From Candidatus Latescibacterota bacterium (GTDB lineage Bacteria; Latescibacterota; UBA2968), in the NCBI GenBank assembly GCA_965232265.1, contig CBDDPH010000002.1, positions 434,257 through 498,256 on the forward strand: a stretch of DNA of 64,000 nt, given 5' to 3'. Below are positions 1 to 14,484 of this stretch, piece after piece (within the stretch, counting starts at the first letter, position 1; each line of letters begins with the position of its first letter). Made by a program: the position numbers and the translations under genes. Under the pieces are notes generated by a model. It searched no databases. It was not told the DNA's origin and saw only the letters and a program-made list of their open reading frames with translations.

Positions 1-23
1 CGATTTATATCGATCTTAAAATT

Positions 24-86
24 TTGTCCACAATTTGGTTGACAAAAATTTTTCCAATATTATTTTGTCCACAGTTTTGTTGACGA
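24..86 (+). promoter_or_regulatory. Two tandem dyad-symmetric operator-like sites (TTGTCCAC-N6-GTTGACAA at ~27-48; TTGTCCAC-N6-GTTGACGA at ~65-86) with embedded TTGACA/TTGACG -35-like hexamers, upstream of the STAND NTPase gene
   Basis: Direct reading: 22-nt imperfect palindromes repeated 38 nt apart, 40-100 nt upstream of the ATG at 128. Confidence 0.4.
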
Positions 87-127
87 CGATTTTTTGAAAG
101 GAAGAATGAATCTCCGGGGGATGTGTA

Positions 128-2587
128 ATGAACAATTCTGATCGGCCTATCCGCAAGTTCAATCCGGGGACGTTTCAGTCCGACGAGGAGGTGATTGAGC
201 AGTTTACGGTGAGAAAACACGAACTCAATACGGTGCTTGGAGTACTGCGCGGGAATATCGGTTCACTGTCGTGTCAACACGTTCTGGTGGTCGCGCCTCG
301 GGGTCGGGGAAAGACGATGTTGCTCGCGCGCGTCTCGGCGGAGTTGAATGCTGATGAGGAACTCTCTATGTGTTTTTTATCAGTTCGATTTATGGAAGAA
401 AATCACGAGATATTTGATCTCGCGGATTTTTGGCTCGAGACTTTGTTTTATCTCGCGCGGGAGAGCGTCAGGCAGGATCCTAAGCTCGCACAGGAACTGC
501 GAGAGGCACACGCCGATCTGACTGCTCGCTGGGACGAGGATGCGCTCGCGGATCGCGCCCGTGACACTGTTTTGGATGCGGCGGAACGATTGGGTAAAAA
601 ACTCGTTCTTATGGTGGAAAATTTGCAGGCACTCTGCGGAGGTTTGGATGACGATTTTGGCTGGCAACTGCGCGGCGCGTTGGAGTCAGAGCCTCGGATC
701 GTGTTGCTCGCTACTGCGACGAGTCGCTTTGAGGGGTTGGAAAATGCGGCAGAGCCGTTCTTCGAGTTGTTCCGAATTGTCGATCTGGAATCGCTGAGTA
801 CTGAGGACTGCTGCCGTCTGTGGGAGGTGGTCAGCGGCGATGCGGTGACTGAGCACGAGATCAGGCCGCTCGAGATCCTGACAGGTGGCAACCCCCGCCT
901 TCTCATTATGGTCGCTGAGTTCGCGCAACACCGGTCATTGCGCCAGTTGATGGAGGAACTGGTGACACTGATTGACAAGCATACCGAGTATTTTCGCGGT
1001 TATCTGGAGGCTTTGCCCAAGAGCGAACGCCGCGTGTATCTCGCGTTGATTGATTTTTGGCGACCGTCGAGTACGAGCGAGATCGCGGCACGGGCGCGTA
1101 TGGGGGTTCGGACCGTATCAACGATGCTCGGTCGGCTTGTGAACCGGGGTGCAGTCGTCGTGGAGGGGTCCAGCAGGAAGCGATTGTACGCCGCAGGAGA
1201 ACCTCTTTATAGCATCTATTACAAGCTGCGACGCGAGCGCGACGAGGCGACAGTTATGAGAAGGCTGATCCATTTCATGATGGCGTTCTACGGGATAGGC
1301 GAGTTGTGCCAGATGTCCGGTCGGCCGAGTTTGGAGGCGGCAGAGTCAAAGGTTATTCGCGAGGGGATTGAGCGTGCGCTCGTCGAACCACCGGACGTTG
1401 AGGACAGTTTTTTGCGCGTGGCATGGTCGGCTGTCGAATATATATCGGATAAAGCGACGGCAAATGCGCCATTCACGGCGGAACTGCGTTTAAAAGAGGA
1501 GGTCCAATCGGCGCTCGATGAGAGAGAATTTGAAAGGGTTGTGGAGATTGGTGACCGTTTTATCGCTTCTGGAGGCGTGGATGCATCTCTCATGTCGGAG
1601 TCTCTCGTCGCCTACATATTGCATACAAGGGCGATTGCTTATGAAAAATTGGAGGATTTCCAAGGAGTGGTCGCGGTTTGCGATGAGATGGTTGAGCGTT
1701 TCGACGACGCATCCGACCATACTCTTCTGGCGCGGATGGCCCGCGTATTGATCCACGGGGCAAGAGCGCGATATGAACTTGGGGAGTTGGCGTTGACGGT
1801 GTCTGCGTATGATGAGGTGATTGAGCGTTTTGGGACCAGCGATGCGCCCGATTTCCAGTTCCCGGTCGCTCTGGCGCTGTTAAAAAAGGGAGATTTGCAA
1901 GTTCAACAGAGAGAGTTGGGGCTGGCGGTGTCTGCTTATGAAGAGGTGATTACTCGCTTTGGTACCAGTGATGCACCGGGGATTCAACTTTTGATCGCCT
2001 GGGCGTTGTCCCAAAAGGGAGATTTGCAAGTTCAACAGGGAGAGTTGGCACTGGCAGTATCTGCTTATGAAGAATTGATCGTGCGTTTTGGGGTCAGTGA
2101 TGTGCCAGCAATCCAGGTTCTGGCCGCCTGGGCGTTGTCCCAAAAGGGGGTGATACAAATCGAGGTAGGACGTGTGGAAGAAGCTCTGCTGATAAGTGAA
2201 GAGCTTGAAGGAAGACTCGGTGCTTTGACTCTCAATGAGAAGGTGATGTTTACATGGCGAGTGAGATATGTGCAGGCTTTGGCTCTACAGCTTAAGAAAA
2301 GGCAACAGTTTGCCATGGATATGTTTCGGTCGGCGTATGCTGTGTTCGTGCCAAACGACGAGACGATGATGTACGAGATGCTACAACTCGTGCCCGCTTT
2401 GATCGCAAACGGTGCCTCAGAGCACGATCTTGTCGATATCCTCCTGTCCAGGGAGAAATCCGATGCGCTGGAACCCCTTATTATTGCTTTGCGACAGCGT
2501 ACCGGCGAGGTGGTTCGCGCGCCTGTGCAGGTTCTTGAGGTGGCGCGGGATATCAATAAGCGCATTGAGATGGGAAGCGTGAAGTGA
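128..2587 (+). CDS. STAND-type P-loop NTPase (Arch_ATPase/AAA_16-like N-terminal domain, DUF234-like winged helix, C-terminal TPR-like repeats)
   Basis: Walker A VVAPRGRGKTMLL preceded by FTVRKHELNTVL (Arch_ATPase-like); Walker B-like LVLMVENL; wHTH-like segment ALIDFWRPSSTSEIAARARMGVRTVSTMLGRL; three 41-aa helical repeats at the C-terminal half. Confidence 0.6.
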   Translation: MNNSDRPIRKFNPGTFQSDEEVIEQFTVRKHELNTVLGVLRGNIGSLSCQHVLVVAPRGRGKTMLLARVSAELNADEELSMCFLSVRFMEENHEIFDLADFWLETLFYLARESVRQDPKLAQELREAHADLTARWDEDALADRARDTVLDAAERLGKKLVLMVENLQALCGGLDDDFGWQLRGALESEPRIVLLATATSRFEGLENAAEPFFELFRIVDLESLSTEDCCRLWEVVSGDAVTEHEIRPLEILTGGNPRLLIMVAEFAQHRSLRQLMEELVTLIDKHTEYFRGYLEALPKSERRVYLALIDFWRPSSTSEIAARARMGVRTVSTMLGRLVNRGAVVVEGSSRKRLYAAGEPLYSIYYKLRRERDEATVMRRLIHFMMAFYGIGELCQMSGRPSLEAAESKVIREGIERALVEPPDVEDSFLRVAWSAVEYISDKATANAPFTAELRLKEEVQSALDEREFERVVEIGDRFIASGGVDASLMSESLVAYILHTRAIAYEKLEDFQGVVAVCDEMVERFDDASDHTLLARMARVLIHGARARYELGELALTVSAYDEVIERFGTSDAPDFQFPVALALLKKGDLQVQQRELGLAVSAYEEVITRFGTSDAPGIQLLIAWALSQKGDLQVQQGELALAVSAYEELIVRFGVSDVPAIQVLAAWALSQKGVIQIEVGRVEEALLISEELEGRLGALTLNEKVMFTWRVRYVQALALQLKKRQQFAMDMFRSAYAVFVPNDETMMYEMLQLVPALIANGASEHDLVDILLSREKSDALEPLIIALRQRTGEVVRAPVQVLEVARDINKRIEMGSVK
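1790..2160 (+). repeat. Three tandem ~123-nt near-identical repeats inside the NTPase CDS (41-aa units GELALAVSAYEEVI.RFGTSDAP.IQ.L.AWALSQKGDLQVQQ)
   Basis: Visible in both DNA and translation; units >80% identical. Confidence 0.7.
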
Positions 2588-2650
2588 GAGGGTCTCACAC
2601 GAAGACACAAAGATACAAGACGTGAGGAACAGGTAACACGTTAAAGGCAA

Positions 2651-2695
2651 TCGCCATCGCGGCATGCTTAAAGCCGCGATCCCGAAGGTTTTGAT
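2651..2695 (+). repeat. REP-like intergenic element copy A (conserved module only: TCGCCATCGCGGC-ATGCTTAAA-GCCGCGATCCCGAAGG-TTTTG)
   Basis: 8-bp stem ATCGCGGC/GCCGCGAT with 9-nt loop; same core found at 8.99, 43.17, 46.67 kb. Confidence 0.5.
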
Positions 2696-2712
2696 CTGGC
2701 TACTGACCGCTT

Positions 2713-3513
2713 TTACCACACAATTTCGTGTGCGTTGACGACGGGTCCTTCGAGGCAGACGCAGCGATAGCGGCGGTCTTCGGTGGGATAGGTTTTGTAT
2801 TCGACCACGCATCCGACACAGGCACCGAAACCGCAGGCCATGTGGTTTTCGAGAGAGGCATAGCAGGGGGTGTCTAATTCGGCGGCGATGTGGGCGACGC
2901 GGGCCATCATGGGATGGGGACCGCAGGTGAGGATGGTGGTGTGGTTTGGAAGGGTGTGTTCGGCAATGAGTTCTGTGACAAATCCTCGGTGTCCCACGCT
3001 GCCGTCATCGGTGGCGATGTGGAGGGGTAGGCCGGCGGGTAAGAGCGCGGACATGTCGGGCAGGCGTGCGGCATTTGCTGCGCCCATGAGGTAGATCATA
3101 TCGGGACGGCGGTCGGAGTGTTCCCACGCTAAAAATGCGAGGGGAACGAGGCCGACGCCACCGGCGACGAGGAGGATGCGTTTGGTTTTTGGGGGGGCAA
3201 AAGGGTTGCCCAGTGGTCCGCTGACGTCAAATTGGTCGCCGCAGTGGGCAGCAGATAGACGCTCGGTGCCGGGGCCGATGACGTCGTAGATGAGGTTGAG
3301 CCAGCCGGCTTTGCGATCTGCGCGCAATACGCTGAAGGGGCGGCGGAGATATGGCGATAGACCAGGATCAGTCAGGATTTGCAGGAATTGCGCCGGGCGC
3401 GAGGCGGCTGCGAGCCTGGGCGCGTGCAGGCGCATGAGATATACGCCCTGTGCGATGGGATCATTTTTTTTGACGATGGCAGGTTCGGAGATGAAGTTTG
3501 GGATTTCGGGCAT
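2713..3513 (-). CDS. pyrK: Dihydroorotate dehydrogenase electron-transfer subunit PyrK (FAD/NAD-binding ferredoxin-reductase fold with C-terminal 2Fe-2S Cys cluster)
   Basis: RPFSV flavin motif, GGVGLVPL NAD-binding motif, C-terminal CGFGACVGC...C...C cluster; located after carB. Confidence 0.75.
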   Translation of the reverse strand: MPEIPNFISEPAIVKKNDPIAQGVYLMRLHAPRLAAASRPAQFLQILTDPGLSPYLRRPFSVLRADRKAGWLNLIYDVIGPGTERLSAAHCGDQFDVSGPLGNPFAPPKTKRILLVAGGVGLVPLAFLAWEHSDRRPDMIYLMGAANAARLPDMSALLPAGLPLHIATDDGSVGHRGFVTELIAEHTLPNHTTILTCGPHPMMARVAHIAAELDTPCYASLENHMACGFGACVGCVVEYKTYPTEDRRYRCVCLEGPVVNAHEIVW

Positions 3514-3519
3514 TGTTGC

Positions 3520-5640
3520 TTACTCTGGTGGTTCAAAGTAGATGGATATGTCTATCCACATGTCGCGCGGCGTGTCTTCGTGTATGCCGGGTTCAAAGGT
3601 GTATTGTTTTACGGCTTCTACTGCGGCACTGTGAAATAGTTCAGGTCCCGAGGTGACATCGACTTCGCCCACGTTGCCGTTTTTTAAGATCAGCACACGC
3701 AGGATGACTGTGGTGGGTTTGCCTTCGGCTCTGGCTTCTTCGGGGTATTCGGGTTCGATTTCTTCTATGACCTGAGGTTCTTCATCGGCATCTACGGCTT
3801 CCATAGTACCGCCTCCGATAATGACATCGGGTTTGAAGGCGGGTTTTGGGGAGGGTGTTTTTTGCGTTCTGAGCTTTGATATATCAGGCGGGGTAGCCGT
3901 TGTATCCGGGGGTGCATCTGCTGGATCAGACCGCGTTGTGTCGGACTGGGAGTCCGAAGGTTGCGTTTGGGTGGAATCTGCTGGCTCGGGCGGGGGTTCG
4001 AGAAATTTGCCCTCGAGTTTGTCGGTTGCAATTTTGCCGTATTGTGTGAGGGGGTATCGCGCCTGCACTTGTTCGTAAACGGTTTTTGCCTGCTCGCGTT
4101 GGTCCATGTCATTTTCGTAGGTCCAGGCGAGGGCAAAAAGTGCCTTTGGGGCAAAGAGGCTGTTGGGATATTCGTCGGCTATTTGTCGGTAGATGGGTAC
4201 GATGTCCCGTGCGGGCGTGCCTTCTGCGATGAGGTTTTCAGCTTGCAGAAATCGCGTTTCTGCCAGGGTATCATCGGCGTGTTTTTGATTGAGGCGCGTG
4301 CGGGCTTCAACGGCATAAGGCGTGTTGGGATGTTGGTCGAGGAGCAGTTGGAAGTGTTCGCGTGCTGCGGTTTCGTTTTTCAGGCTGTCGGCATAAATAA
4401 GTCCAATGGTATAACGCACTTTGGGTGCCAGGTCAGTCGTGTCGATCAGGCTCAATACGCGCTGATAAATACTCAGGGCCGAGTCGGGTTCGCCCAGATT
4501 AAAGAGGTATAGTTCGGCGAGATCAAAGAGCGGTCCCAATGCTTTTTGCGGGTCTTCGACTTTTTCGGCTTGTTTGGTATAGCGTTCGAGTGCTACGAGA
4601 TCTTTTTGCCGTTGTAAAGCCAGTTTGCCCTCGTCCGAGCTTCGGTCTTCGCGGACGGCTTTTTCGAATAGTTCTTTGGCTTTTTCCAGGTTTCTACGCG
4701 ATTTTTGTTCGATGAGGCCCAGACGATAAAAAGCTTCTGCGCTGTATTCGCCGCGGGGATATTTTTTTCCGACGTCGCTATAGATTTCTTCCGCAATTTC
4801 AGTCTGATCTTTTAGCTGGTATATACGCGCCTGTTTGAGTCGGATTTCGGCTTCGTATATGCGAAGCCGTTTGATTTTTAATATTTTTTGGTATGTGTCC
4901 AGTGCCCCGTCGTATTTTTGCTGGCGCTCGAGGGTTTCGCCAATTTTGACGCGGGTTTCAAAATTTGTCCTGGTATCGGGTTTTGATTTTAGCACGTTTT
5001 CGTAGGCTTCAAGTGCTTCGTCGTATCGGTTCAATTCGAGGAGGTTGTTGCCCACGCCTTGCCAGGCGCGTGCGCGCAATTTGTGCTTTTTGTCGAGTGT
5101 TTCGAGCAGTGTTTTATAGGATGTAATCGCGTCTTCTCTGTTGCCCTGTGAGGCTTCCATTTCCGCGAGTGCCAGATTTGCGAGGCCGTACAACTCGGGG
5201 TCGGTTTTTTTGTCGAAGAGAGAAAATGTGGTCCGCGCTTCATTGGAGCGCTTCATTGCCCAGAGCGTGCGGCCCTGATAGTAGCGCGTTTCGGGGATTA
5301 GTTCGCTTTCTGGGAAGAGTTTTTGCAGTTCTTGAAATTTGGTGAGTGCTTCGGTGTAATCTTCGCGCCAATAAGACGCTTTGCCGATGAGTAGCAAGCT
5401 GTCGTCGAACCATTTGCTGTCGGGAAAGTATTTGAGCACGATGGACGCTTTGAGTATGGCCCGCTGGTAGAGCGCGTTATAGGTCGCAGGTGTTATTCGG
5501 CTGCCGGGAGCTTCGGATTCGACGCGTTTTTGCTCGGCAATATTGTACTGTTGTTTGGCGTTGTAAAAGGTGTTGTAATACACGCTTTTGCAAGCCAGAC
5601 AGAGGATGCAGAGGGATGTGATGTATATTAGACGAGACAT
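3520..5640 (-). CDS. Secreted/lipoprotein-like TPR-repeat protein with Pro/Thr-rich linker and C-terminal TonB-C (energy transducer TonB C-terminal) domain
   Basis: N-terminal hydrophobic signal with Cys (ILCLAC); ~10 TPR-like units; EPPPEPADSTQTQP... linker; C-terminal EPEYPEEARAEGKPTTVILRVLILKNGNVGEVDV...AAVEAVKQYTFEPG typical of TonB-C. Confidence 0.6.
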   Translation of the reverse strand: MSRLIYITSLCILCLACKSVYYNTFYNAKQQYNIAEQKRVESEAPGSRITPATYNALYQRAILKASIVLKYFPDSKWFDDSLLLIGKASYWREDYTEALTKFQELQKLFPESELIPETRYYQGRTLWAMKRSNEARTTFSLFDKKTDPELYGLANLALAEMEASQGNREDAITSYKTLLETLDKKHKLRARAWQGVGNNLLELNRYDEALEAYENVLKSKPDTRTNFETRVKIGETLERQQKYDGALDTYQKILKIKRLRIYEAEIRLKQARIYQLKDQTEIAEEIYSDVGKKYPRGEYSAEAFYRLGLIEQKSRRNLEKAKELFEKAVREDRSSDEGKLALQRQKDLVALERYTKQAEKVEDPQKALGPLFDLAELYLFNLGEPDSALSIYQRVLSLIDTTDLAPKVRYTIGLIYADSLKNETAAREHFQLLLDQHPNTPYAVEARTRLNQKHADDTLAETRFLQAENLIAEGTPARDIVPIYRQIADEYPNSLFAPKALFALAWTYENDMDQREQAKTVYEQVQARYPLTQYGKIATDKLEGKFLEPPPEPADSTQTQPSDSQSDTTRSDPADAPPDTTATPPDISKLRTQKTPSPKPAFKPDVIIGGGTMEAVDADEEPQVIEEIEPEYPEEARAEGKPTTVILRVLILKNGNVGEVDVTSGPELFHSAAVEAVKQYTFEPGIHEDTPRDMWIDISIYFEPPE

Positions 5641-5645
5641 GGGAT

Positions 5646-7457
5646 TTAAGAAGTGTGAAAGTCCTGGAGTGAGCGAATGCGAATTGTGCTGTTGTTTTTG
5701 AGCGATTGGATGCCGGCAACAGCGGCGGCGGCTCCCGATAAGGTGGTTGTGTAGGGCAGGCCGTATTGTATGGCTGCTTTGCGAATTTCGGGGTCGGCGG
5801 CCTGGGATTGCTCTCCTGCAGGGGTGTTGATCATGAGAGAGATTTCGCCGTTTTTGATGGCGTCGAGGATGTTTGGGCGTCCTTCCTGGATTTTGAAGAT
5901 CCGATTACAGGCTATGTTGTGGCTTTTGAGAAAGGCGCAGGTTCCCCCTGTGGCAATGAGGCGAAAGTTCATGTCGGATAGTTGTTGGGCAATGGGTACA
6001 AGTCCTTCTTTGTCGCGGTCGTTGACGCTTAAAAATACGGTTCCCTCCTGGGGCAAGCGCACGCCTGCGCCGAGTTGCGCTTTTTGGAAGCTGAGGCCAA
6101 AGTCGGTGTCTATGCCCATGACTTCGCCGGTGGATTTCATTTCGGGACCGAGGACGGTGTCAACGCCGGGAAATTTGTTGAAGGGCAAGACGGCTTCTTT
6201 GACGGCAATGTGGCTGATGGGTACTTCCCGGGTAAAGCCCTGTTCTGCAAGTGTGCGCCCGACCATTGCGCGGGCAGCGACTTTGGCCAGGGGCACGCCA
6301 ATGGCTTTGCTGACAAAGGGTACGGTGCGCGATGCTCTGGGGTTGACTTCGATAATAAATACGTCTTCGCCTTGAATGGCAAACTGAATGTTCATGAGGC
6401 CCACCACGTTGAGTGCTCTGGCCAGGGCGCGCGTGTGGCTTCGCAGTTCATTGAGGTTGGTGTCGGAGATTTTATAAGGGGGTAAGACGCAGGCGCTGTC
6501 GCCAGAGTGTACGCCCGCGCTTTCGATGTGTTGCATGATGCCGCCGATGACGACTGCTGTTGGATCTGCTACGGCATCGACGTCAAATTCGTGTGCGTCT
6601 TCTAAAAATCGGTCGATGAGGATGGGGCGTTCAGGAGAGGCTTCTATGGCATTGTGCATATAGGCGATGAGGGCTTCGCGGTCATATACGATTGCCATTG
6701 CGCGGCCCCCGAGTACATAAGAGGGGCGCACGAGAACTGGATATCCGATTTGTTCGGCTATGGCGATTGCTTCGTCGGTGCTTATTGCGGTGCCGTTTTC
6801 GGGTTGTCGTATGCCCAGTTCTTTGATGAGTGCGCCAAAGCGCTTGCGGTCTTCGGCCAGGTCAATGGCGTCGGGCGATGTGCCGGCGATGTTGAGGCCC
6901 CCGCGTTCGAGGTCGCGCGCGAGGTTGAGCGGTGTTTGTCCGCCGAATTGAACAATGACGCCGTCGGGTTGTTCAACATCGGCGATGCTGAGTACGTCTT
7001 CGGCAGTGAGCGGTTCAAAGTAGAGTTTGTCGGATGTGTCGTAGTCGGTGGAGACGGTTTCGGGGTTGGAGTTGACCATGATGGTCTCAAATCCGTCTTC
7101 TTTGAGGGCATAGGAGGCGTGGCAACAACAATAGTCGAATTCGATGCCCTGTCCAATGCGATTGGGTCCGCCGCCCAGGATCATGATTTTTTGGCGATCG
7201 GATCGGATGGCTTCGTTATCTGTTTCATAGGTCGAATAGTGATACGGCGTATAGGCTTCAAATTCGGCGGCGCAGGTATCTACGGTTTTGAATACGGGCG
7301 CGATGCCGAGTTCTTTTCGCAAGGCGCGAACAGCCCATTCGTCACTTTGCCACAGGTGTGCCAGTTGGCGGTCGGAGAAGCCATGTTGTTTGGCTTTGAG
7401 CAGGTCTGCGCGCGTGATGCGCGATTTTAAGTCGTTGAGTGTGTGCTGTTTTGTCAT
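5646..7457 (-). CDS. carB: Carbamoyl-phosphate synthase large subunit, C-terminal half (second ATP-grasp domain plus MGS-like domain), encoded as a separate CDS
   Basis: Starts inside the oligomerisation domain (VFKTVDTCAAEFEAYTPYHYSTYE); second ATP-grasp and MGS-like domain motifs; ATG 2 nt after the stop of the N-half CDS. Confidence 0.85.
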   Translation of the reverse strand: MTKQHTLNDLKSRITRADLLKAKQHGFSDRQLAHLWQSDEWAVRALRKELGIAPVFKTVDTCAAEFEAYTPYHYSTYETDNEAIRSDRQKIMILGGGPNRIGQGIEFDYCCCHASYALKEDGFETIMVNSNPETVSTDYDTSDKLYFEPLTAEDVLSIADVEQPDGVIVQFGGQTPLNLARDLERGGLNIAGTSPDAIDLAEDRKRFGALIKELGIRQPENGTAISTDEAIAIAEQIGYPVLVRPSYVLGGRAMAIVYDREALIAYMHNAIEASPERPILIDRFLEDAHEFDVDAVADPTAVVIGGIMQHIESAGVHSGDSACVLPPYKISDTNLNELRSHTRALARALNVVGLMNIQFAIQGEDVFIIEVNPRASRTVPFVSKAIGVPLAKVAARAMVGRTLAEQGFTREVPISHIAVKEAVLPFNKFPGVDTVLGPEMKSTGEVMGIDTDFGLSFQKAQLGAGVRLPQEGTVFLSVNDRDKEGLVPIAQQLSDMNFRLIATGGTCAFLKSHNIACNRIFKIQEGRPNILDAIKNGEISLMINTPAGEQSQAADPEIRKAAIQYGLPYTTTLSGAAAAVAGIQSLKNNSTIRIRSLQDFHTS

Positions 7458-7459
7458 GG

Positions 7460-8908
7460 TTAGTCCATCAGGGCGGCGAGTTCTTTTTCTACTTCGACGA
7501 GTTGTCGCATGTTGTCGAGAAACCAGGGGTCAATTTTGGTGGCGTCAAAAATTTCCTGTACGGATAGTCCCGCGTCATAAGCCGTTTTGAGATAGGCCAA
7601 TCGCTGCGAGTTGGGTTCGCGCAGGCCGCGTTCGAGGGCTTCTCGCGAGAGGGTGTTGGGATGGATGTCTTTGCCGTCGGCACCAAATCCCGCACGCCCG
7701 ATTTCGAGCGAGCGCAAGCCTTTTTGCAGTGCTTCTTTAAACGTGCGACCTATGGCCATGGTTTCACCTACAGATTTCATTTGTGTGCCCAACAGATCAG
7801 CGGTTTGGGGAAATTTCTCAAATGTCCAGCGCGGGATTTTGATGACGCAATAGTCGATGGTGGGTTCAAATGAGGCGGGTGTTTCGCGCGTGATGTCGTT
7901 TTGTATTTCGTCCAGGGTGTATCCAATGGCGAGTTTGGCGGCTATTTTGGCGATAGGAAAGCCCGTGGCTTTTGAGGCGAGTGCGGAACTGCGGGAGACG
8001 CGGGGGTTCATTTCTATGACGACGCGCCGGCCCGTGTTGGGGTCAACTGCAAACTGGATATTGGAGCCGCCGGTTTCCACGCCGATTTCGCGGATGCAGG
8101 CGATGGCGTCATCGCGCATTTCCTGATATTCTTTGTCTGTGAGCGTTTGCGCGGGTGCCACGGTGATGGAGTCACCCGTGTGTACGCCCATGGGGTCGAA
8201 GTTTTCTATGGAGCAGATGATGACGACATTGTCGTTTTGGTCACGCATGACTTCGAGCTCGAATTCTTTCCAGCCGATGATGGATTCTTCTACGAGGATC
8301 TCAGAGGTGGGCGATAGGCTGAGTCCGTGTGCAGCAGCTTGTCTAAATTCTTCGATATTGTACGCGGTGCCAGCGCCTGTGCCGCCCAGGGTGTAAGACG
8401 GGCGGATGATGGCGGGAAATCCGATTTCAACCGTGATGTCGCATGCTTCTTTGAGGGTGTAGGCAAATCGGCCTTTGGGGAAGTCGAGGCCGATTTTATT
8501 CATGGCTTTTTGGAAGGCTTCGCGGTTTTCGGCTTTTTCTATGGCGTGTGGTTTTGCACCGATCATTTCGACGTCAAATTTTTCGAGTGTGCCCTGTTCG
8601 TGCAGGGCCATGGCAGTGTTGAGGCCCGTTTGTCCGCCCAGGGTTGGGAGGATGGCATCTGGGCGTTCTTTTTCGATGATGGCTGCACACACTTCGGGGG
8701 TAACGGGTTCGACATAAGTCTGGTCAGCCATTTCGGGGTCGGTCATGATGGTGGCGGGGTTGCTGTTGACCAGCACGACTTCGTATCCCTCTTCTTTGAG
8801 GGCTTTGCAGGCTTGTGTGCCCGAGTAGTCAAATTCACAGGCTTGTCCGATGACGATGGGACCAGAGCCGATGAGCATTATTTTTTTGAGGTCGGTTTGC
8901 TTGGGCAT
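7460..8908 (-). CDS. carB: Carbamoyl-phosphate synthase large subunit, N-terminal half (first ATP-grasp domain plus start of oligomerisation domain)
   Basis: [57 protein letters not shown] is a canonical CarB N-terminus; ends ...[11 protein letters not shown] then TAA. Confidence 0.85.
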
Positions 8909-8950
8909 AAAGAGCTTTCAGGGGTTAGCGATCAAAGGTAATGTATCCGA

Positions 8951-9045
8951 CTGTAGGGGACGGTCCCCGTATAGAAGCACTACGGGGCAGGCTCCCGTCA
9001 TTGCGGCATGCTTAAAGCCGCAATCCAGTGGTTTTTGTCATTACT
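8951..9045 (+). repeat. REP-like mosaic element copy B (CTGTAGGGGACGGT-[CCCCGTA-loop-TACGGGG]-...GTCATTGCGGC-ATGCTTAAA-GCCGCAATCCAGTGG-TTTTTG); overlaps the 3' end of nnr
   Basis: Same architecture as copies at 43.14 and 46.6 kb; stem carries a compensatory T/A change (ATTGCGGC/GCCGCAAT). Confidence 0.5.
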
Positions 9046-10587
9046 GGCGTCGTTGCGTATTTGGTGAATGGCGGCGGCAAAGTTTTCGATGATGTCACTG
9101 GCGATGAGGCTTATTTGTCCTGTTTTTTTCGCTGCAATATCAGCGGCGAGGCCGTGGAGATAGACGGCTGTGCAGGCGGCGTCTGAGGGGTTGAGTCCCT
9201 GACCGATCAGGGCGGCGAGAAGGCCCGTAAGTACGTCTCCTGTGCCGCCGGTTGCCATGCCCGGGTTCCCGGTTGGGTTGATGTGCGCCCGGCCTTCTGG
9301 CGTTGCGACGATGGTCGGCGCGCCTTTCAGGACTGTGGTGGCTCCGACATCGGTGGCGAATTCTGTGGCACGTGCTATGGGGTCGCGCTGCATTTCGGAG
9401 ATGCTGTACCCGGTCAGGCGCGCAAATTCCCCGATGTGCGGGGTGAGTACCAGGGGTGTTTTGCAGGCGCGGACCGCGGCGAGGTCGCCAGCGAGTGCGT
9501 TGAGGGCGTCGGCGTCGATGACTGCGGGAGATCTCAGGTCACGCACGAGGCGACGGATGAGTTCGACGGTTTCTCGATGGGTCCCCAAACCCGGACCTAT
9601 TGCGATACTGTCGGCTGTGCAACAGGCGCGTTGTATTTCGCACCGGGCGCGCAGGGACAGGCATCTGACTTTTTTTATTTCGGGTAGGGGTTGGGTCATG
9701 GCTTCGGTGACTTTGGTTTCGAGTATGTCGTTGAGGCTTTTGGGTACGCCGAGTGTGACGAGGCCCGCGCCTCCTTTGAGTGCCGCGTTTGCCGAGAGTG
9801 CTGCCGCGCCTGTAAGTCCCACGGACCCGGCGAGAATATACACTCTGCCGCAATCCCCTTTGTGGACGTCGGGTTCCCGGTGGGGAAGCAGACGAGCGCA
9901 ACGGCGGTTGTCGATGAGGGAGGTGCGAATGCGTTCGGCCTCAATTGCCGAGGGGGGAATCCCGATGTCTATGAGGTGCAAGTTGCCGCACCGGGCGCGA
10001 CCAGGGTAGAAGAAGTGTCCAATGCGCGGCCGTGCAAATGTGACGGTGCGTGTTGCGGTTGCACAGGCCCCTTCGATTTCGCCCGTGTCGGCGTTGAGTC
10101 CAGAGGGTATATCTACGGCGACTATGGGGCATCTGGCGCGGGTGAGAGCGTTTATGAGGTCGGCGTATATGCCGCGGGGAGGCCCCTGGATACCCGTGCC
10201 CAATAGCGCGTCAACGGCAATGTCGGCATTGGCGAGTGCATGTTGTACTGTTGTGATGTGGTCGACCGGCTGCACGATGTCTGGGGGCAGTCGGTCGAGG
10301 TTGGTTTTTGCATCGCCTGTTATTTCCCGGGCGGATGTGGCTGTGAATACCTGGACTTTTGCCCTGCTTTGGGCAGCTTGTCTGGCGATGACAAAGCCGT
10401 CGCCGCCGTTGTTGCCTTTGCCACAGAGGATGACGATGTGCCGGTTTTGGAAGTCGCCCAACAGGTTTTCTACGACCCGGGTTACGCCTTGCCCGGCGGC
10501 TTCCATGAGTTCAATGCTCGGCACACCACTGTCAACTGCCCGACGGTCAATGGATGCCATCTGGGAGCCGGTGATAAGCTCAATCAT
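8998..10587 (-). CDS. nnr: Bifunctional NAD(P)H-hydrate repair enzyme Nnr (YjeF-N epimerase plus YjeF-C ADP-dependent dehydratase)
   Basis: N-terminal ILCGKGNNGGDGFVIAR (YjeF-N) and C-terminal carbohydrate-kinase-like GGTGDVLTG motif. Confidence 0.8.
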   Translation of the reverse strand: MIELITGSQMASIDRRAVDSGVPSIELMEAAGQGVTRVVENLLGDFQNRHIVILCGKGNNGGDGFVIARQAAQSRAKVQVFTATSAREITGDAKTNLDRLPPDIVQPVDHITTVQHALANADIAVDALLGTGIQGPPRGIYADLINALTRARCPIVAVDIPSGLNADTGEIEGACATATRTVTFARPRIGHFFYPGRARCGNLHLIDIGIPPSAIEAERIRTSLIDNRRCARLLPHREPDVHKGDCGRVYILAGSVGLTGAAALSANAALKGGAGLVTLGVPKSLNDILETKVTEAMTQPLPEIKKVRCLSLRARCEIQRACCTADSIAIGPGLGTHRETVELIRRLVRDLRSPAVIDADALNALAGDLAAVRACKTPLVLTPHIGEFARLTGYSISEMQRDPIARATEFATDVGATTVLKGAPTIVATPEGRAHINPTGNPGMATGGTGDVLTGLLAALIGQGLNPSDAACTAVYLHGLAADIAAKKTGQISLIASDIIENFAAAIHQIRNDASNDKNHWIAALSMPQ

Positions 10588-10787
10588 CTGGTAGGGTGCG
10601 AGATCGTGTACGCGGTGTGAGATTTTCTAAGTCAGGTTGCAGTTTTGTGCCTAAAAATATAGGAAGGACACGGGCAACGCAAACCCTTTTTTTGCGGAAG
10701 GAAGCATTGGTGATTATTGAATATATAATTGCTAAATAAAAGAAAAACAAAGTTTAAGTGTGTTCAAGTTGAGTTGATACAAACCGC

Positions 10788-10816
10788 TTGACAGAGATGG
10801 GGTGCTTATCTATACT
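10788..10816 (+). promoter_or_regulatory. Consensus sigma70-type promoter (TTGACA-17 nt-TATACT) driving the tRNA-Ser pair
   Basis: Perfect -35, 17-nt spacer, near-consensus -10; ~14 nt before the tRNA 5' end. Confidence 0.5.
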
Positions 10817-10829
10817 TTTCGGATGACGT

Positions 10830-10917
10830 GGTGGGGTGCGAGAGCGGTCGAATCGGGCGGTCTTGAAAACCGTTGACCCTCGCGGGTCCGTGGGTTCGAA
10901 TCCCACCCCCACCGCCA
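10830..10917 (+). tRNA. tRNA-Ser (anticodon TGA), class II with long variable arm
   Basis: Acceptor GGTGGGG/CCCCACC, 3-bp D stem, anticodon loop CTTGAAA, variable arm GACCCTCGCGGGTC, TTCGAAT T-loop, encoded CCA. Confidence 0.8.
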
Positions 10918-11049
10918 TATTAAAGTGTAAAGTGTGAAGAAGCACCCGCCTTTGGGTGGTGTTGGGTGGCTTTCTTACTTCTTACTTCTCACTTCTAACT
11001 TGCCTTTACACACGTCCTTTGTTACTTTCTGCTGTTCGTTTTTGTTCGC

Positions 11050-11141
<92 letters not shown>

Positions 11142-11197
11142 AAAAATAAGCTATCAGCAGTCATCAAAACAAGCTGAAAGCTAATGGGTCTTTTTTA

Positions 11198-12619
11198 ATG
11201 TCCGACACGGTTTTGCGTTTTGCGCCGTCTCCCACAGGTGGGTTTCACGTGGGGAATGCGCGAACGGCGATTTTTAATCATCTTTACGCAAAGCACGACA
11301 AGGCAAAGTTGTTGTTGCGCGTGGAAGATACAGATCGAGAGCGTTTTACGGAGTCGTCTCTTCAGACGATTCTGGACGGTTTGAACTGGCTCGGTGTTGA
11401 TTTTGACGCCGAGCCAGTGTTTCAGTCGCGCAATGCCGAGGCGCATAAGCAAGCCGCCGAGCGTCTGGTGGAGACGGGACATGCGTATTACGGCTATGAG
11501 ACTGCCGAGGAACTTGATGCGATGCGCCGGCAGGCGCAGATCGAGAAGCGGCGCGTGCGCTACAATCGGGATTTGACGCCGGAACAGCAGGCGGCTTTTG
11601 AGGCCGAGGGCCGGCCACGAGTTGTGCGGTTTAAGGTGCCAGCGGGTGAGACGGTCTGGCACGATCGCATTCGGGGGGTGCAGCGGTGGGATAATACCGA
11701 GGTTGAGGATTTTGTTTTGTTGCGGCCCGATGGTTCGCCTGTTTACAATCTCGCGGTGGTGGTGGATGATCACGATATGGGTGTGAATATGGTGTTGCGG
11801 TCTGCGGACCATTTGTCGAATACGCCGAAGCAGATTATGCTGTTTGAGGCACTTTCTTGGATGGTGCCAGAGTATGGGCATTCCACGCTGATTTTGGGTC
11901 CCGATGGGAGCAAGTTGTCCAAACGCCATGGGGCGACGACAATTTCGGAGTATCGGGAGCGGGGTTTTTTGTCGGATGCGATGTTCAATTATCTCGCGCT
12001 GTTGGGATGGGCACCGGGGGATGAGCGCGAGGTGTTTGCGCGAGATGCGTTGACCGAGGCGTTTTCTGTTGAGGGATTGCTCAAGCGAGATGCAATTTTT
12101 GACGAGAAGAAGCTGGTGTGGCTCAATGGCGAGCATATCCGGCTTCGTCCGGTGGATGCGGTGTTGGACGATGCGATACCAATTTGGATTGCGGAGGGGT
12201 GGCTTACGGAGGCAGAGGCTTCTGAGCGGCGGGATGAGTTGATGAGGATTGCCGAGTTGTTGCAGCCGCGGTTGCATACGCTTCAGGATTTGAAGCATAC
12301 GGGTTATTTTTTTCTAGATCCGGATGTGTATGATGCAAAGACGGCTAAGAAGAACTGGAAGACGGATACGCCCGAGCGGGTTCAGTTGATGATTGACCGT
12401 CTGGAGGATTTGGATTCGTTTGACGAAGGCGATATTGAGGGTGTGACGCGGATGTTGGCTGGTGAATTGGGGATTTCGGCTTCGAGGCTGATTCATCCAA
12501 CGCGCCTCGCGCTTTGCGGCGTTGGGTTTGGACCGGGGTTGTTTGAACTGATGGCTGTGCTCGGGCGGGAGACGTGTATTCGCAGGCTGAAGAAGGCGCT
12601 GGAGGTTTTGGGGTCATAA
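11198..12619 (+). CDS. gltX: Glutamyl-tRNA synthetase
   Basis: HIGH-type motif PSPTGGFHVGNARTA and KMSKS-type KLSKRHG; typical GluRS N-terminus. Confidence 0.9.
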   Translation: MSDTVLRFAPSPTGGFHVGNARTAIFNHLYAKHDKAKLLLRVEDTDRERFTESSLQTILDGLNWLGVDFDAEPVFQSRNAEAHKQAAERLVETGHAYYGYETAEELDAMRRQAQIEKRRVRYNRDLTPEQQAAFEAEGRPRVVRFKVPAGETVWHDRIRGVQRWDNTEVEDFVLLRPDGSPVYNLAVVVDDHDMGVNMVLRSADHLSNTPKQIMLFEALSWMVPEYGHSTLILGPDGSKLSKRHGATTISEYRERGFLSDAMFNYLALLGWAPGDEREVFARDALTEAFSVEGLLKRDAIFDEKKLVWLNGEHIRLRPVDAVLDDAIPIWIAEGWLTEAEASERRDELMRIAELLQPRLHTLQDLKHTGYFFLDPDVYDAKTAKKNWKTDTPERVQLMIDRLEDLDSFDEGDIEGVTRMLAGELGISASRLIHPTRLALCGVGFGPGLFELMAVLGRETCIRRLKKALEVLGS

Positions 12620-12644
12620 TACCCTGAATCGCTGTATATATTTT

Positions 12645-12718
12645 TGCCCCCTCGTCTAATGGCAAGACATGCGGCTCTGGACCGTAGAATCGGGGTTCGA
12701 ATCCCTGGGGGGCAACCA
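12645..12718 (+). tRNA. tRNA-Gln (anticodon CTG) immediately downstream of gltX
   Basis: 74-nt cloverleaf: acceptor TGCCCCC/GGGGGCA, D stem GTCT/AGAC, anticodon stem TGCGG/CCGTA with loop CTCTGGA, TTCGAAT T-loop, discriminator A, CCA. Confidence 0.65.
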
Positions 12719-12730
12719 ATTTTTTTCAAA

Positions 12731-12780
12731 GGTCGTAAGTTTTTGTTGCAGATGAACAGCACTTACGGCCTTTTGTTTTT
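12731..12780 (+). terminator. Rho-independent terminator after tRNA-Gln (10-bp stem GGTCGTAAGT/ACTTACGGCC, then TTTTGTTTTT)
   Basis: Stem-loop followed by U-run, read directly. Confidence 0.55.
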
Positions 12781-12986
12781 CCTTTCCAAGGCTATTTTGT
12801 ATAAAAAATGAGGGGACGGCAGGGAGGGATACCATTTGCCACGCCGCCCCCGAAGACCGGGCATGGAGTGAAGGGATATCTCGACCCGGTCGTTGTGTTC
12901 ATGGGGATCTGTATTAAGCTGATCGAACACTTAGACGGGCAACAAGCGCCTTTGGTGTCAAATTCATCCTTTCCTGGAGATTTTCT

Positions 12987-13328
12987 ATGATTTACGACAT
13001 GCGAACCTACGACCTGAATCCCGGTGCTTTGCAAGCCTATATGGATGCGGTGCGCGAGGTGGCACTTCCCCTGCGCGAAGACTACGGCGTCAAGCTCGCC
13101 GGGTGGTATTATACCGATATTGGGAAGTTAAATCGCGTTGTTCACATTTGGGCGTATCGCGACTATACCCATTTTGATCAGGCGCGGCAAGCTGTCCGCA
13201 GCGACTCCCGATGGGTCAATGAATATTTGCCTCGCGTCAAAGGGCTGGTCGCGCGTCAGCAAGATCAAATTATGCTGGCGTCTGATTTCTTCGAGTCCCG
13301 GGTCCCGGCTCTTTCGGAAGATGCATGA
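12987..13328 (+). CDS. NIPSNAP-family protein
   Basis: MIYDMRTYDLNPG...VHIWAYRDYTHFDQARQA resembles the NIPSNAP fold signature (MIYELRTY...). Confidence 0.55.
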   Translation: MIYDMRTYDLNPGALQAYMDAVREVALPLREDYGVKLAGWYYTDIGKLNRVVHIWAYRDYTHFDQARQAVRSDSRWVNEYLPRVKGLVARQQDQIMLASDFFESRVPALSEDA

Positions 13329-13364
13329 GCGCGGGAATATCTGACAATTCTGGAGAGGAGATTT

Positions 13365-13925
13365 ATGATGAGCGATGGACAAATCATTTTTCAAGACACA
13401 TTTGACGGCGGGCTGGACAGCGGCTGGTCGTGGTTGCGGGAACATCCCGATGATTGGCGGATTGGGAATGGCGGTCTGGAGATTTGCGTGCGTCCCGGTG
13501 TAAAGGACACGGTGCAGAATGCTTTGCTCAGACCGGCACCAGATCGCGGTGAGGGCACTTATGCGGTTGAGGTTACGATCACAAATCACAGCCAGCCGAC
13601 GCAGCAATACGAACAGGCGGGTATTACATGGTATCACAATGGGGAACCGGTGTTCAAAGAGGTGAAGGAACTCATTGATGGCGATTTGTACATTATTCCC
13701 GGGAAGCAGCCGATGCCAACGCAGAGTGTTCGCCTGCGTCTTGTTGTTACTGCGAGTACATGGGAAGCGCAGTTTCGCGCCGAGGGCGAGTCCGCGTTCC
13801 AGACTGCGGCTTCGGGCGCGCTCCCGCCTCCGGGCGATGACCAGGTGAGTATTCAGTGCTATAATGGTCCGGAGGAAGGTGACCATTGGATACGGTTTTC
13901 GGATTTTTGTATTAAGAGGATTTAG
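13365..13925 (+). CDS. DUF1349-like concanavalin-A-like lectin/glucanase superfamily protein
   Basis: W-W-RE...W...L.I pattern and YEQAGI core typical of DUF1349; no signal peptide. Confidence 0.45.
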   Translation: MMSDGQIIFQDTFDGGLDSGWSWLREHPDDWRIGNGGLEICVRPGVKDTVQNALLRPAPDRGEGTYAVEVTITNHSQPTQQYEQAGITWYHNGEPVFKEVKELIDGDLYIIPGKQPMPTQSVRLRLVVTASTWEAQFRAEGESAFQTAASGALPPPGDDQVSIQCYNGPEEGDHWIRFSDFCIKRI

Positions 13926-14005
13926 GTAAAAATATTCTGGATCGCAGACGGCACGGGGGCCGTGCCCTACGATGATTTTGTAGGAGCGCTGTGGTCGCTC
14001 GCAAT

Positions 14006-14040
14006 AAAAAAGCACCACCTCTTATGAGATGGTGCTTTTT
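14006..14040. terminator. Bidirectional intrinsic terminator between convergent DUF1349 gene (+) and csp (-): A6-GCACCACCTC-TTAT-GAGATGGTGC-T5
   Basis: 10-bp stem (one G.U on the minus-strand RNA) flanked by A-run and T-run. Confidence 0.6.
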
Positions 14041-14065
14041 GGTTAATTCTGAATTTATTTTCAGA

Positions 14066-14266
14066 TTATTGCTTTACGACATTCGCTGCCTGGAGGCCCT
14101 TAGGTCCCTGAGTGATGTCAAATTCAACCAGGTCCCCTTCGGACAAAGACTTAAAGCCTTCGGCTTGGATCGCTGAGAAATGGACGAAAACATCTTCGCC
14201 CCCTTCTTGCTCGATAAAACCGAATCCCTTGGCGTCGTTAAACCATTTAACTCTTCCTTCTGCCAA
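14066..14266 (-). CDS. cspA: Cold-shock protein (CspA family), apparent TTG start with strong SD (AAAGGTGGTG)
   Basis: [34 protein letters not shown] carries RNP1/RNP2 motifs; no in-frame ATG so start codon is TTG. Confidence 0.85.
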
Positions 14267-14310
14267 CGTACTTCACCACCTTTCTACATCGAAAATTGCA
14301 CATCAGATCG

Positions 14311-14345
14311 AAAAAAGGCAAGAATCAGAAGTTTCGATTCTTGCC
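14311..14345 (-). promoter_or_regulatory. Terminator-like hairpin (perfect 10-bp stem GGCAAGAATC/GATTCTTGCC, loop 9 nt, followed by U6) inside the predicted ~140-nt 5'UTR of csp, about 45 nt upstream of the start codon
   Basis: A TATAAT -10 (plus coordinates 14417-14422) lies further upstream, placing this structure in the leader. Confidence 0.45.
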
Positions 14346-14484
14346 ATACCGTCTTTTCAGGCCGATTGTACAGGAAACAAAACAACACATTCTTAATACT
14401 TGGGCGCAAATACCCATTATACAAAGGCAAAGATACCCTTTATTATCTCAGAAGTCAACGTTTTTTCAGAAAAAAAGTTCCATT

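Follow-up and report, generated by a model that had tools for sequence, protein, structure and literature searches.

STAND/NLR proteins, where STAND denotes signal transduction ATPases that possess numerous domains, serve as the chief pattern-recognition receptors in the innate immunity of bacteria, plants and animals, and to our knowledge nearly all characterised bacterial examples have a fused effector. A gene of this type was identified at the edge of a 64,000-nucleotide stretch of a Candidatus Latescibacterota genome (assembly GCA_965232265.1, contig CBDDPH010000002.1, positions 434,257 to 498,256 of the forward strand; hereafter the window), where it is predicted to encode a protein with a STAND-type nucleotide-binding oligomerisation domain (NOD) and a sensor resembling tetratricopeptide repeats (TPR). 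The STAND-TPR sensor gene is designated c0, and a partner ATPase gene found beside many of its relatives is designated c1. It is proposed here, at a probability of roughly 55%, that c0 is the sensor of a horizontally mobile, NLR-like conflict module which is most likely directed against phages or mobile elements.

Several described systems resemble c0 in part. The Arch_ATPase-type proteins PABY2304 (PDB entry 2qen) and SSO1545 (2fna), and the family PF01637 in general, are about 350 amino acids long and have no sensor, whereas the window protein adds an arm, a TPR sensor and a C-terminal tail. In RADAR, RdrA (an 'Archaeal ATPase', 8fnt) and RdrB likewise combine an Arch_ATPase-like NTPase with a separately encoded partner, in defence. 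In Avs proteins an effector (for example a nuclease, SIR2 or protease) is fused into a single polypeptide, whereas c0 has no effector and its partner is a NOD-only ATPase; neither a match to a curated defence model nor a fused effector, the marks of Avs and other known anti-phage STAND proteins, was found for c0. Fungal and bacterial NLRs with highly conserved internal repeats carry near-identical units in variable number, as do the long members of the c0 family; the window gene differs from them in having only three units, of 53-70% protein identity and in fixed number. The layout of NOD, three-hairpin arm and TPR sensor is common to c0, PH0952 (6mfv) and MalT; the order of NOD, arm and repeat sensor has been described for the latter two, PH0952 having the same arm layout, and their double autoinhibition and inducer-driven opening provide a mechanistic template (PMC6468293). 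The C-terminal LuxR-type helix-turn-helix and MalT-type TPR region that define MalT/LAL-type regulators were not found in c0. A 2026 survey counted 589 prokaryotic STAND clades, 198 of them associated with defence (PMC13581612), so an uncharacterised clade is not surprising in itself.

Domain architecture of c0

The first-pass annotation, made from the sequence, had read c0 as a P-loop NTPase followed by a winged helix and a TPR-like sensor, a STAND architecture which was borne out by Pfam, structural models and Foldseek (Table 1). The P-loop NTPase matched AAA_16 (PF13191) at residues 25-181 (E = 1.8e-7; 32.2 bits against a cut-off of 32.6); the same family scored above its cut-off in kin (37.9 bits in the adjacent paralogue of a relative and 39.5 in c1) and is already annotated on most of the c0 relatives listed. 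TPR-class matches were obtained between residues 498 and 765. The winged helix matched TrmB (E = 8.9e-5), a match which exceeds the Pfam cut-off in some relatives, and its profile matched the MarR structure 2fa5 (E = 1e-4). As to two of the families which the first-pass annotation had proposed to search for, ATPase_2/Arch_ATPase (PF01637) was indeed matched, at a weak 21.4 bits against a cut-off of 33.2, while DUF234 was not matched in Pfam.

Table 1. Features of c0 and its upstream region, in window coordinates
Feature	Residues	Nucleotides	Strand	Basis
Two palindromic predicted operator copies, TTGTCCAC-N6-GTTGAC, 41 bp apart (putative function)		24-45, 65-86	+	Motif conservation
Sigma-70-like promoter overlapping the operator copies: TTGACA, 16-nt spacer, TATTTT		39-44, 61-66	+	Promoter scan
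c0, complete open reading frame (stop included); STAND-type NTPase with TPR-like sensor	819 in total	128-2587	+	
Nucleotide-binding domain	20-222	185-793	+	Pfam AAA_16, invariant residues, strand order and helices of model
Helical domain	225-295	800-1012	+	Model helices
GxP motif TGGNPRLL	252-259	881-904	+	
Winged-helix domain, MarR/TrmB/ArsR type	298-357	1019-1198	+	Pfam TrmB, profile search, model
Arm of three helical hairpins linking winged helix to sensor	360-465	1205-1522	+	Model
TPR-like sensor solenoid, six 43-residue units	467-724	1526-2299	+	Repeat finders, model
Three well-conserved repeat units		1784-1912, 1913-2041, 2042-2170	+	Tandem Repeats Finder and repeat search
Conserved C-terminal helical tail	725-819	2300-2584	+	tblastn, family consensus

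A full-length AlphaFold model was built from 36 close relatives and was confident only from residue 450 onwards, with a per-residue confidence (pLDDT) of 30-50 in the NOD. Its sensor consisted entirely of helical hairpins (pLDDT 85-95), and when the model was searched with Foldseek the top match in the Protein Data Bank was the STAND-TPR protein PH0952 (6mfv; E = 2.8e-5), almost all other matches being TPR or other helical-repeat proteins. A separate NOD model of residues 1-460, based on 72 diverse family representatives, reached a pLDDT of 90 and a predicted template-modelling score of 0.87. It was made up of a five-stranded P-loop domain, a GxP helical domain, a winged helix of three helices plus a beta hairpin (residues 343-356) and a three-hairpin arm with helices at residues 360-369, 373-387, 390-406, 408-419, 427-446 and 451-459.

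The Walker A motif was identified as APRGRGKT (residues 56-63, nucleotides 293-316), in which G59, G61 and K62 are invariant and T63 is invariant in two of three alignments. The Walker B motif is atypical, reading LVLMVEN (residues 159-165, nucleotides 602-622) with hhhhE164-N165 where DD or DE is usual; across the 72 members, at identities down to 39%, E164 is invariant and N165 at least 90% conserved. A sensor-1-like motif, LLATATSR, occupies residues 193-200, and T252, G254, P256 and R257 of the helical domain are invariant or nearly so. A P-loop nucleotide-binding domain with Walker A and B motifs, a NOD built of nucleotide-binding, helical and winged-helix domains, and an arm with a repeat sensor, the features by which STAND proteins are recognised, are all present in c0.

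When the NOD model was compared with known structures, the highest score was obtained with the Arch_ATPase-type protein 2qen (23.4, with 314 residues aligned), followed by the archaeal Arch_ATPase-type NTPase 2fna (22.2), two plant NLRs (19.1 and 18.8) and CED-4 (18.7); Orc1/Cdc6 and subunits of the origin recognition complex (ORC) scored 16.2 or less, Avs5 15.0, MalT 13.4 and RdrA 11.6. A STAND/Arch_ATPase-type NOD is supported by the model; the likeness to Arch_ATPase is structural only, the PF01637 score being below threshold. Since Arch_ATPase and NLR structures outscored ORC/Cdc6, the best matches of c0 lie outside the ORC/Cdc6 initiators, and the contrary placement envisaged in the first-pass annotation, an ORC/Cdc6 protein with a conserved non-repetitive C-terminus, was not found.

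No domain besides the NTPase, the winged helix and the TPR region was detected in c0 with Pfam, NCBIfam or PADLOC, and the NTPase module begins at about residue 20, which leaves no room for an N-terminal effector. An exhaustive HMMER search with residues 1-460 matched representatives of 4112 clusters (50% identity), of which 1013 reached E = 1e-30 or better, and in nearly all of the best 150 of the 4112 representatives the NOD starts at residue 1-15. A fused effector in the rare N-terminally extended relatives was considered and rejected, the extensions of three such family members containing no Pfam domain. The best PADLOC match of c0 was to Csa3, in the winged helix-turn-helix region (E = 7e-4), and the sole Avs match in PADLOC was a negligible one of Avs4 to the partner c1 (E = 0.097, 7.8 bits), with none to c0. 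The earlier statement that c0 has no recognisable effector holds on all of these counts; a terminal effector domain, which most STAND proteins but not all of them possess, was not found. The last 95 residues form a helical tail with the family-wide motif LxPLxVALRxxxGExVRAPxEVxEVAxDI, which by tblastn is kept in all loci at 29-80% identity, independently of repeat number; the tail had no match in Pfam or the other databases searched.

The partner gene c1 and its genomic surroundings

The c0 family is large, with at least 2989 matches in a word-indexed search, and its members are named publicly only as 'hypothetical', 'AAA family ATPase', 'ATP-binding' or 'TPR protein'. Loci with c0 relatives were fetched (L001-L021; 436 kb in total for motif scanning). 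Orthologues of 79-88% identity were found at seven loci from Latescibacterota metagenome-assembled genomes, and homologues of 44-57% identity in Alphaproteobacteria, Rhodobacterales, Vicinamibacterales, 'Ca. Multivorans' and 'Ca. Palauibacter'.

A second ATPase gene, c1, was found immediately upstream of c0 at L007, L009, L011-L015 and L018-L021, spanning five phylum- or class-level lineages; four of these c1-c0 loci were fetched by protein identity and the rest are loci of distant homologues. The c1 stop and c0 start overlap (ATGA or GTGA) or are separated by no more than about 30 bp. The c1 product, of about 414 amino acids, is a NOD-only AAA_16/ATPase_2 NTPase of Arch_ATPase type, with the Walker A motif GQRRMGKTS, a canonical Walker B motif LLVIDELP (hhhhDE), a GxP-like motif GVGIPHH and a C-terminus resembling a winged helix-turn-helix; it has no sensor or effector, and its profile matches 2qen and 2fna. 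Its sequences from different phyla share 61-81% identity, and relatives of 406-424 amino acids number at least 2155. Relatives of c1 and c0 recur many times on contigs of the same size, and c1-like genes of just 30-39% identity still have a c0-like gene next downstream. The possibility that c1 is a recent truncated copy of c0 was rejected because homology between the two NODs is weak (local hhalign alignment, probability 51%); in that alignment D150/E151 of c1 fall on E164/N165 of c0.

On gene order and motifs, the canonical module is a pair of genes, c1 (NOD-only, Walker B hhhhDE) followed by c0 (Walker B hhhhEN). From the layout in the closest relatives, the window gene is read as a sensor paralogue of this two-gene module that is short and transcribed separately: at L001, L004 and L005, c1 is followed by a long c0 (816-909 amino acids) and, after a further 0.2-1.2 kb, by the window gene's orthologue. 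The window gene is a c0 with three repeat units and its own predicted promoter and operator, and in the closest genomes an extra sensor copy downstream of a c1-c0 pair. The first-pass annotation had supposed that partners of c0 lie upstream, outside the window, and was right in substance, as relatives carry c1 and the longer paralogue 0.2-1.2 kb upstream (from paralogue stop to orthologue start). At L010 only a truncated c0 of 599 amino acids, and no recognisable c1, was found upstream of the orthologue. At L002 and L003 the orthologue is directly preceded by a MazE/MazF pair, and a MazE-like reading frame of the same cluster is present at L010.

Several c1-c0 loci and their kin lie among defence genes. 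At L015 the pair is inserted between HsdM and HsdS/HsdR of a type I restriction-modification operon, and at L007 and L008 an N6 methylase is found within 5 kb. The neighbours at L018 are PDC-M03A/B (E = 1e-85 and 5e-76), AbiLi/PDC-M38A+B, a defence-type SIR2, HipA_C, HicB and a type I restriction-modification system; L020, between Fe-ADH and MurB, is that chromosomal hotspot again with other cargo. HmaC (E = 1e-98) and PtuA (E = 2e-118) were identified at L021. The c0 gene of L014 ('Ca. Multivorans') is interrupted in its 5' part by an ISL3-family transposase (8729-9985), leaving reading frames of 93 and 783 amino acids.

Directly downstream of the pair in the L020 defence island, a protein of 1271 amino acids (12738-16553) had no Pfam or PADLOC match.

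Sensor repeats and the predicted operator

Two repeat finders, Tandem Repeats Finder among them, gave a repeat period of 129 nucleotides, or 43 residues, a spacing which recurs in every family member. Three tandem repeats in the C-terminal part had been reported by the first-pass annotation as almost identical and 41 residues long; their presence is well above chance (Tandem Repeats Finder score 374), while the length proved to be 43 residues and the pairwise identities only 76%, 67% and 71% in DNA (70%, 53% and 70% in protein). About three degenerate 43-residue units of 12-21% identity flank them, two before (residues 467-552) and one after (residues 682-724). Exactly three units were counted in all 37 listed relatives of 808-822 amino acids, which indicates a stable copy number within the orthologous group. 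When the units of the window gene are compared with those of the orthologues, each is closest to its positional counterpart; substitutions that are lineage-specific and common to all three units point to some gene conversion.

Across the family, protein length climbs in 43-residue steps, from 3 to 15 units. The long paralogues contain 7-15 units with a mean unit identity of about 0.8, some pairs being 100% identical, and it is these paralogues, of the same family, that have the highly conserved internal repeats described for NLRs. The window gene has the fewest and most degenerate repeats of the family, and neither units of at least 85% identity nor variable unit number in close relatives was observed for it. 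A recent duplication of near-identical DNA repeats, suggested earlier for this gene, is contradicted by the 67-76% identity and by the three copies fixed in orthologues; the comparison of repeat number proposed at the same time was run on the 37 listed relatives and gave no variation. Ongoing recombination in the sensing region, suggested alongside it, fits the family through its long paralogues and applies only weakly to the window gene. In 35 long paralogues, variability between the units of one protein peaked at unit positions 23, 26, 27, 30, 33, 34, 37, 38, 40 and 41, which follow an i, i+3/4 pattern along one face of the second helix. Such a face is as expected for a diversifying binding surface, judging from the sequence pattern.

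The palindromic element upstream of c0 was found in the 64-kb window at just the two sites of Table 1 and one weak site (chance mean 0.89), and two to three copies of it are kept upstream of 7/7 Latescibacterota orthologues. At nearly all c1-c0 loci of other phyla, c1 is preceded at a distance of 10-100 bp by a related array, CAAC-N6-GTTG-A-CAAC-N6-GTTG. In the 436 kb of fetched loci, 45 of the 52 matches to CAAC-N6-GTTGAC fall within the 0.8% of sequence upstream of c1 or an orphan c0. Two to four palindromes are spaced about 41-44 bp apart in an AT-rich stretch. An unbiased exact scan of metagenome contigs for a 33-bp form (TTCAACC-N5-GTTGACAAC-N5-GGTTGAA) identified 36 contigs (L022-L057). 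A c1-like gene adjoins the motif in 14 of these, among them the c1-like genes of 30-39% identity that have a c0-like gene downstream; in the other 22, unrelated and high in GC, it lies 3-15 bp upstream of ArsR/SmtB-family genes. The module operator and the 33-bp palindrome have 21 specified bases in common, and the latter may represent an undescribed ArsR-type operator class.

The predicted operator would be read by a winged-helix protein, for which the winged-helix domain of c0, the C-terminus of c1 or a host ArsR-like repressor are candidates; the ArsR proteins that use the same palindrome have only generic winged helix-turn-helix similarity to the winged helix of c0. The module and the orphan sensor would then form one small regulon. 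A role of c0 as regulator of the adjacent pyrK and carB was considered and rejected, as the operator is absent from their promoters and 2-8 kb of unrelated insertions intervene in relatives.

Further copies of the operator were observed at L018 (16582-16618), between a HicB-like antitoxin gene and a 64-residue reading frame, and at L007 (1242-1278), in a segment of about 480 bp duplicated upstream of c1.

Some observations concern the surroundings of c0 in the window. Downstream pyrK, TPR-TonB and split-carB genes are retained at six of the seven Latescibacterota loci, the contig of L004 ending before them. In the window c0 abuts pyrK, with a gap of 125 bp (2588-2712), whereas every relative (L001-L010, 12460-20870) has variable insertions of 2-8 kb, including sigma-54 response regulator genes between the c0 orthologue and pyrK, which marks the c0-pyrK junction as a variable spot. 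The DNA of c0 (128-2587) is 87-89% identical to that of its orthologues; for those genomes the figure for the adjacent housekeeping block (2713-8908) is 91-93%, which indicates somewhat faster evolution of the STAND gene. The large subunit of carbamoyl-phosphate synthase is split into two adjacent genes of 482 and 603 amino acids (5646-8908, minus strand), as it also is in Latescibacterota relatives. GC skew is strong and positive (0.17-0.23) over positions 1-14000, where most genes are on the minus strand, and about zero thereafter.

Competing explanations, proposed mechanism and meaning

A number of observations weigh against a mobile conflict module with c0 as its sensor. Neither c1 nor a second c0 was found in the 64-kb window, where the gene is flanked downstream by the housekeeping genes pyrK and carB and its upstream side falls outside; at L002, L003 and L006 the orthologue is present with no c1 within 10 kb. 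The c1-c0 pair of L019 lies in a non-defence neighbourhood, and the association with defence amounts to about 6 of 13 independent loci, a count of loci and not a genome-wide statistic. Matches of c0 or c1 to defence models of PADLOC and NCBIfam were not significant, the best being mad8 (E = 5e-6) through the P-loop only. An effector domain was found in neither protein, so that a killing or signalling mechanism cannot be named.

Among the alternatives, the one that survives best, though it is considered unlikely, is that c0 is a STAND transcription factor resembling MalT, PH0952 or AfsR, which would bind a small-molecule or protein inducer through its TPRs and, as an ATP-bound multimer, the palindromes through its winged helix, would regulate its own expression and perhaps further genes, and would play no part in defence. 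Transcription factors of STAND-TPR type are well established (PMC6468293; PMC13581612), the winged helix scores as MarR/TrmB type, the palindrome overlaps the promoter of nearly all c1-c0 operons and that of the orphan c0, and its 33-bp form serves ArsR-family genes elsewhere. Yet c0 has no dedicated DNA-binding effector of LuxR, SARP or ArsR type, its winged helix being the integral winged-helix domain of the NOD. In the 64-kb window the operator occurs only at the promoter of c0 itself, and neighbouring genes vary from locus to locus, so no target regulon is visible. The patchy spread across phyla, the location in defence islands, the variable numbers of near-identical repeats and the disruption by an insertion sequence would also be unusual for a metabolic regulator.

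Far less probable is the proposal that a mobile element uses c0 and c1 as an ATPase pair for ORC/Cdc6-like initiation or DNA loading, with the palindromes as iterons or origin. The profile of c0 matches the ORC4 P-loop (E = 9e-4), one relative matches the Pfam ORC-CDC6-like family at its cut-off over 60 residues, and the spaced array of palindromes in AT-rich sequence is of the kind such an origin would have; Arch_ATPase and NLR structures, however, score much higher than ORC/Cdc6 and align over about 310 residues compared with about 260, the loci are chromosomal and at different positions, integrase, transposase, relaxase and replication genes do not travel with the pair, and an initiator would have no use for a TPR sensor whose repeats diversify. 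That the window copy is a functionless, decaying paralogue left over from an upstream pair is suggested by its few, degenerate repeats and by the lack of c1 beside it and at L002, L003 and L006, but is hardly credible for a reading frame of 815-819 amino acids which is intact in 8 genomes, keeps all nucleotide-binding motifs and a conserved operator and promoter of its own, and is under purifying selection relative to its orthologues (ratio of nonsynonymous to synonymous substitution rates 0.21-0.26 overall, 0.13-0.20 in the NOD and 0.22-0.31 in the three repeat units).

Returning to c0 as the sensor of a conflict module, a mechanism may be outlined by analogy with characterised STAND proteins. 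At rest c0 would be an autoinhibited monomer in which the arm and TPRs clamp an ADP-bound NOD. A trigger would bind the variable helix face of the TPR units, upon which the NOD would open, bind ATP and multimerise, probably together with the hydrolysis-competent c1. From the deviant Walker B of c0 (EN) and the canonical one of c1 (DE), it is proposed that, within a mixed assembly, c0 acts as a slow or non-hydrolysing switch while c1 is the active ATPase. No fused enzyme domain would carry the output, for which the likeliest candidates are the binding or release of the palindromic operator by the winged helix, as self-regulation, and some activity of the c0-c1 assembly or of the conserved tail. 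A fuller and more speculative version, offered tentatively, is a two-STAND immune module with no enzymatic effector, in which c0 would be a hydrolysis-impaired, diversifying sensor and c1 its helper, extra sensors would share the helper and the operator regulon, and output would pass through the winged helix of the NOD at an ArsR-type operator.

In fold and general logic c0 follows known STAND/NLR proteins. Four features are undescribed in the searchable literature and in PADLOC 2023: that c0 is paired with a NOD-only ATPase, that an effector is absent throughout the family, that the sensor has a degenerate Walker B, and that the module has an operator specific to it. No description of a two-ATPase STAND module was found in the searchable literature, and the accessions of the family do not appear in the 2026 STAND survey, its supplements aside.

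This is a very large family (4112 clusters, and at least 2155 relatives of the partner) with no effector, an obligate-looking NOD-only partner, a sensor whose catalytic site is degenerate and an operator specific to the module. For the window gene, the appropriate annotation is that of an orphan sensor paralogue of the module, and not of a stand-alone regulator of the neighbouring pyrimidine genes. If the proposal is true, the family would show NLR-type switch signalling with no fused effector, and the two-STAND module would be a bacterial counterpart of sensor/helper NLR pairs, analogous to those of plants. Its TPR units, near-identical and with one variable face, would then be a natural scaffold for studying how recognition specificities arise.

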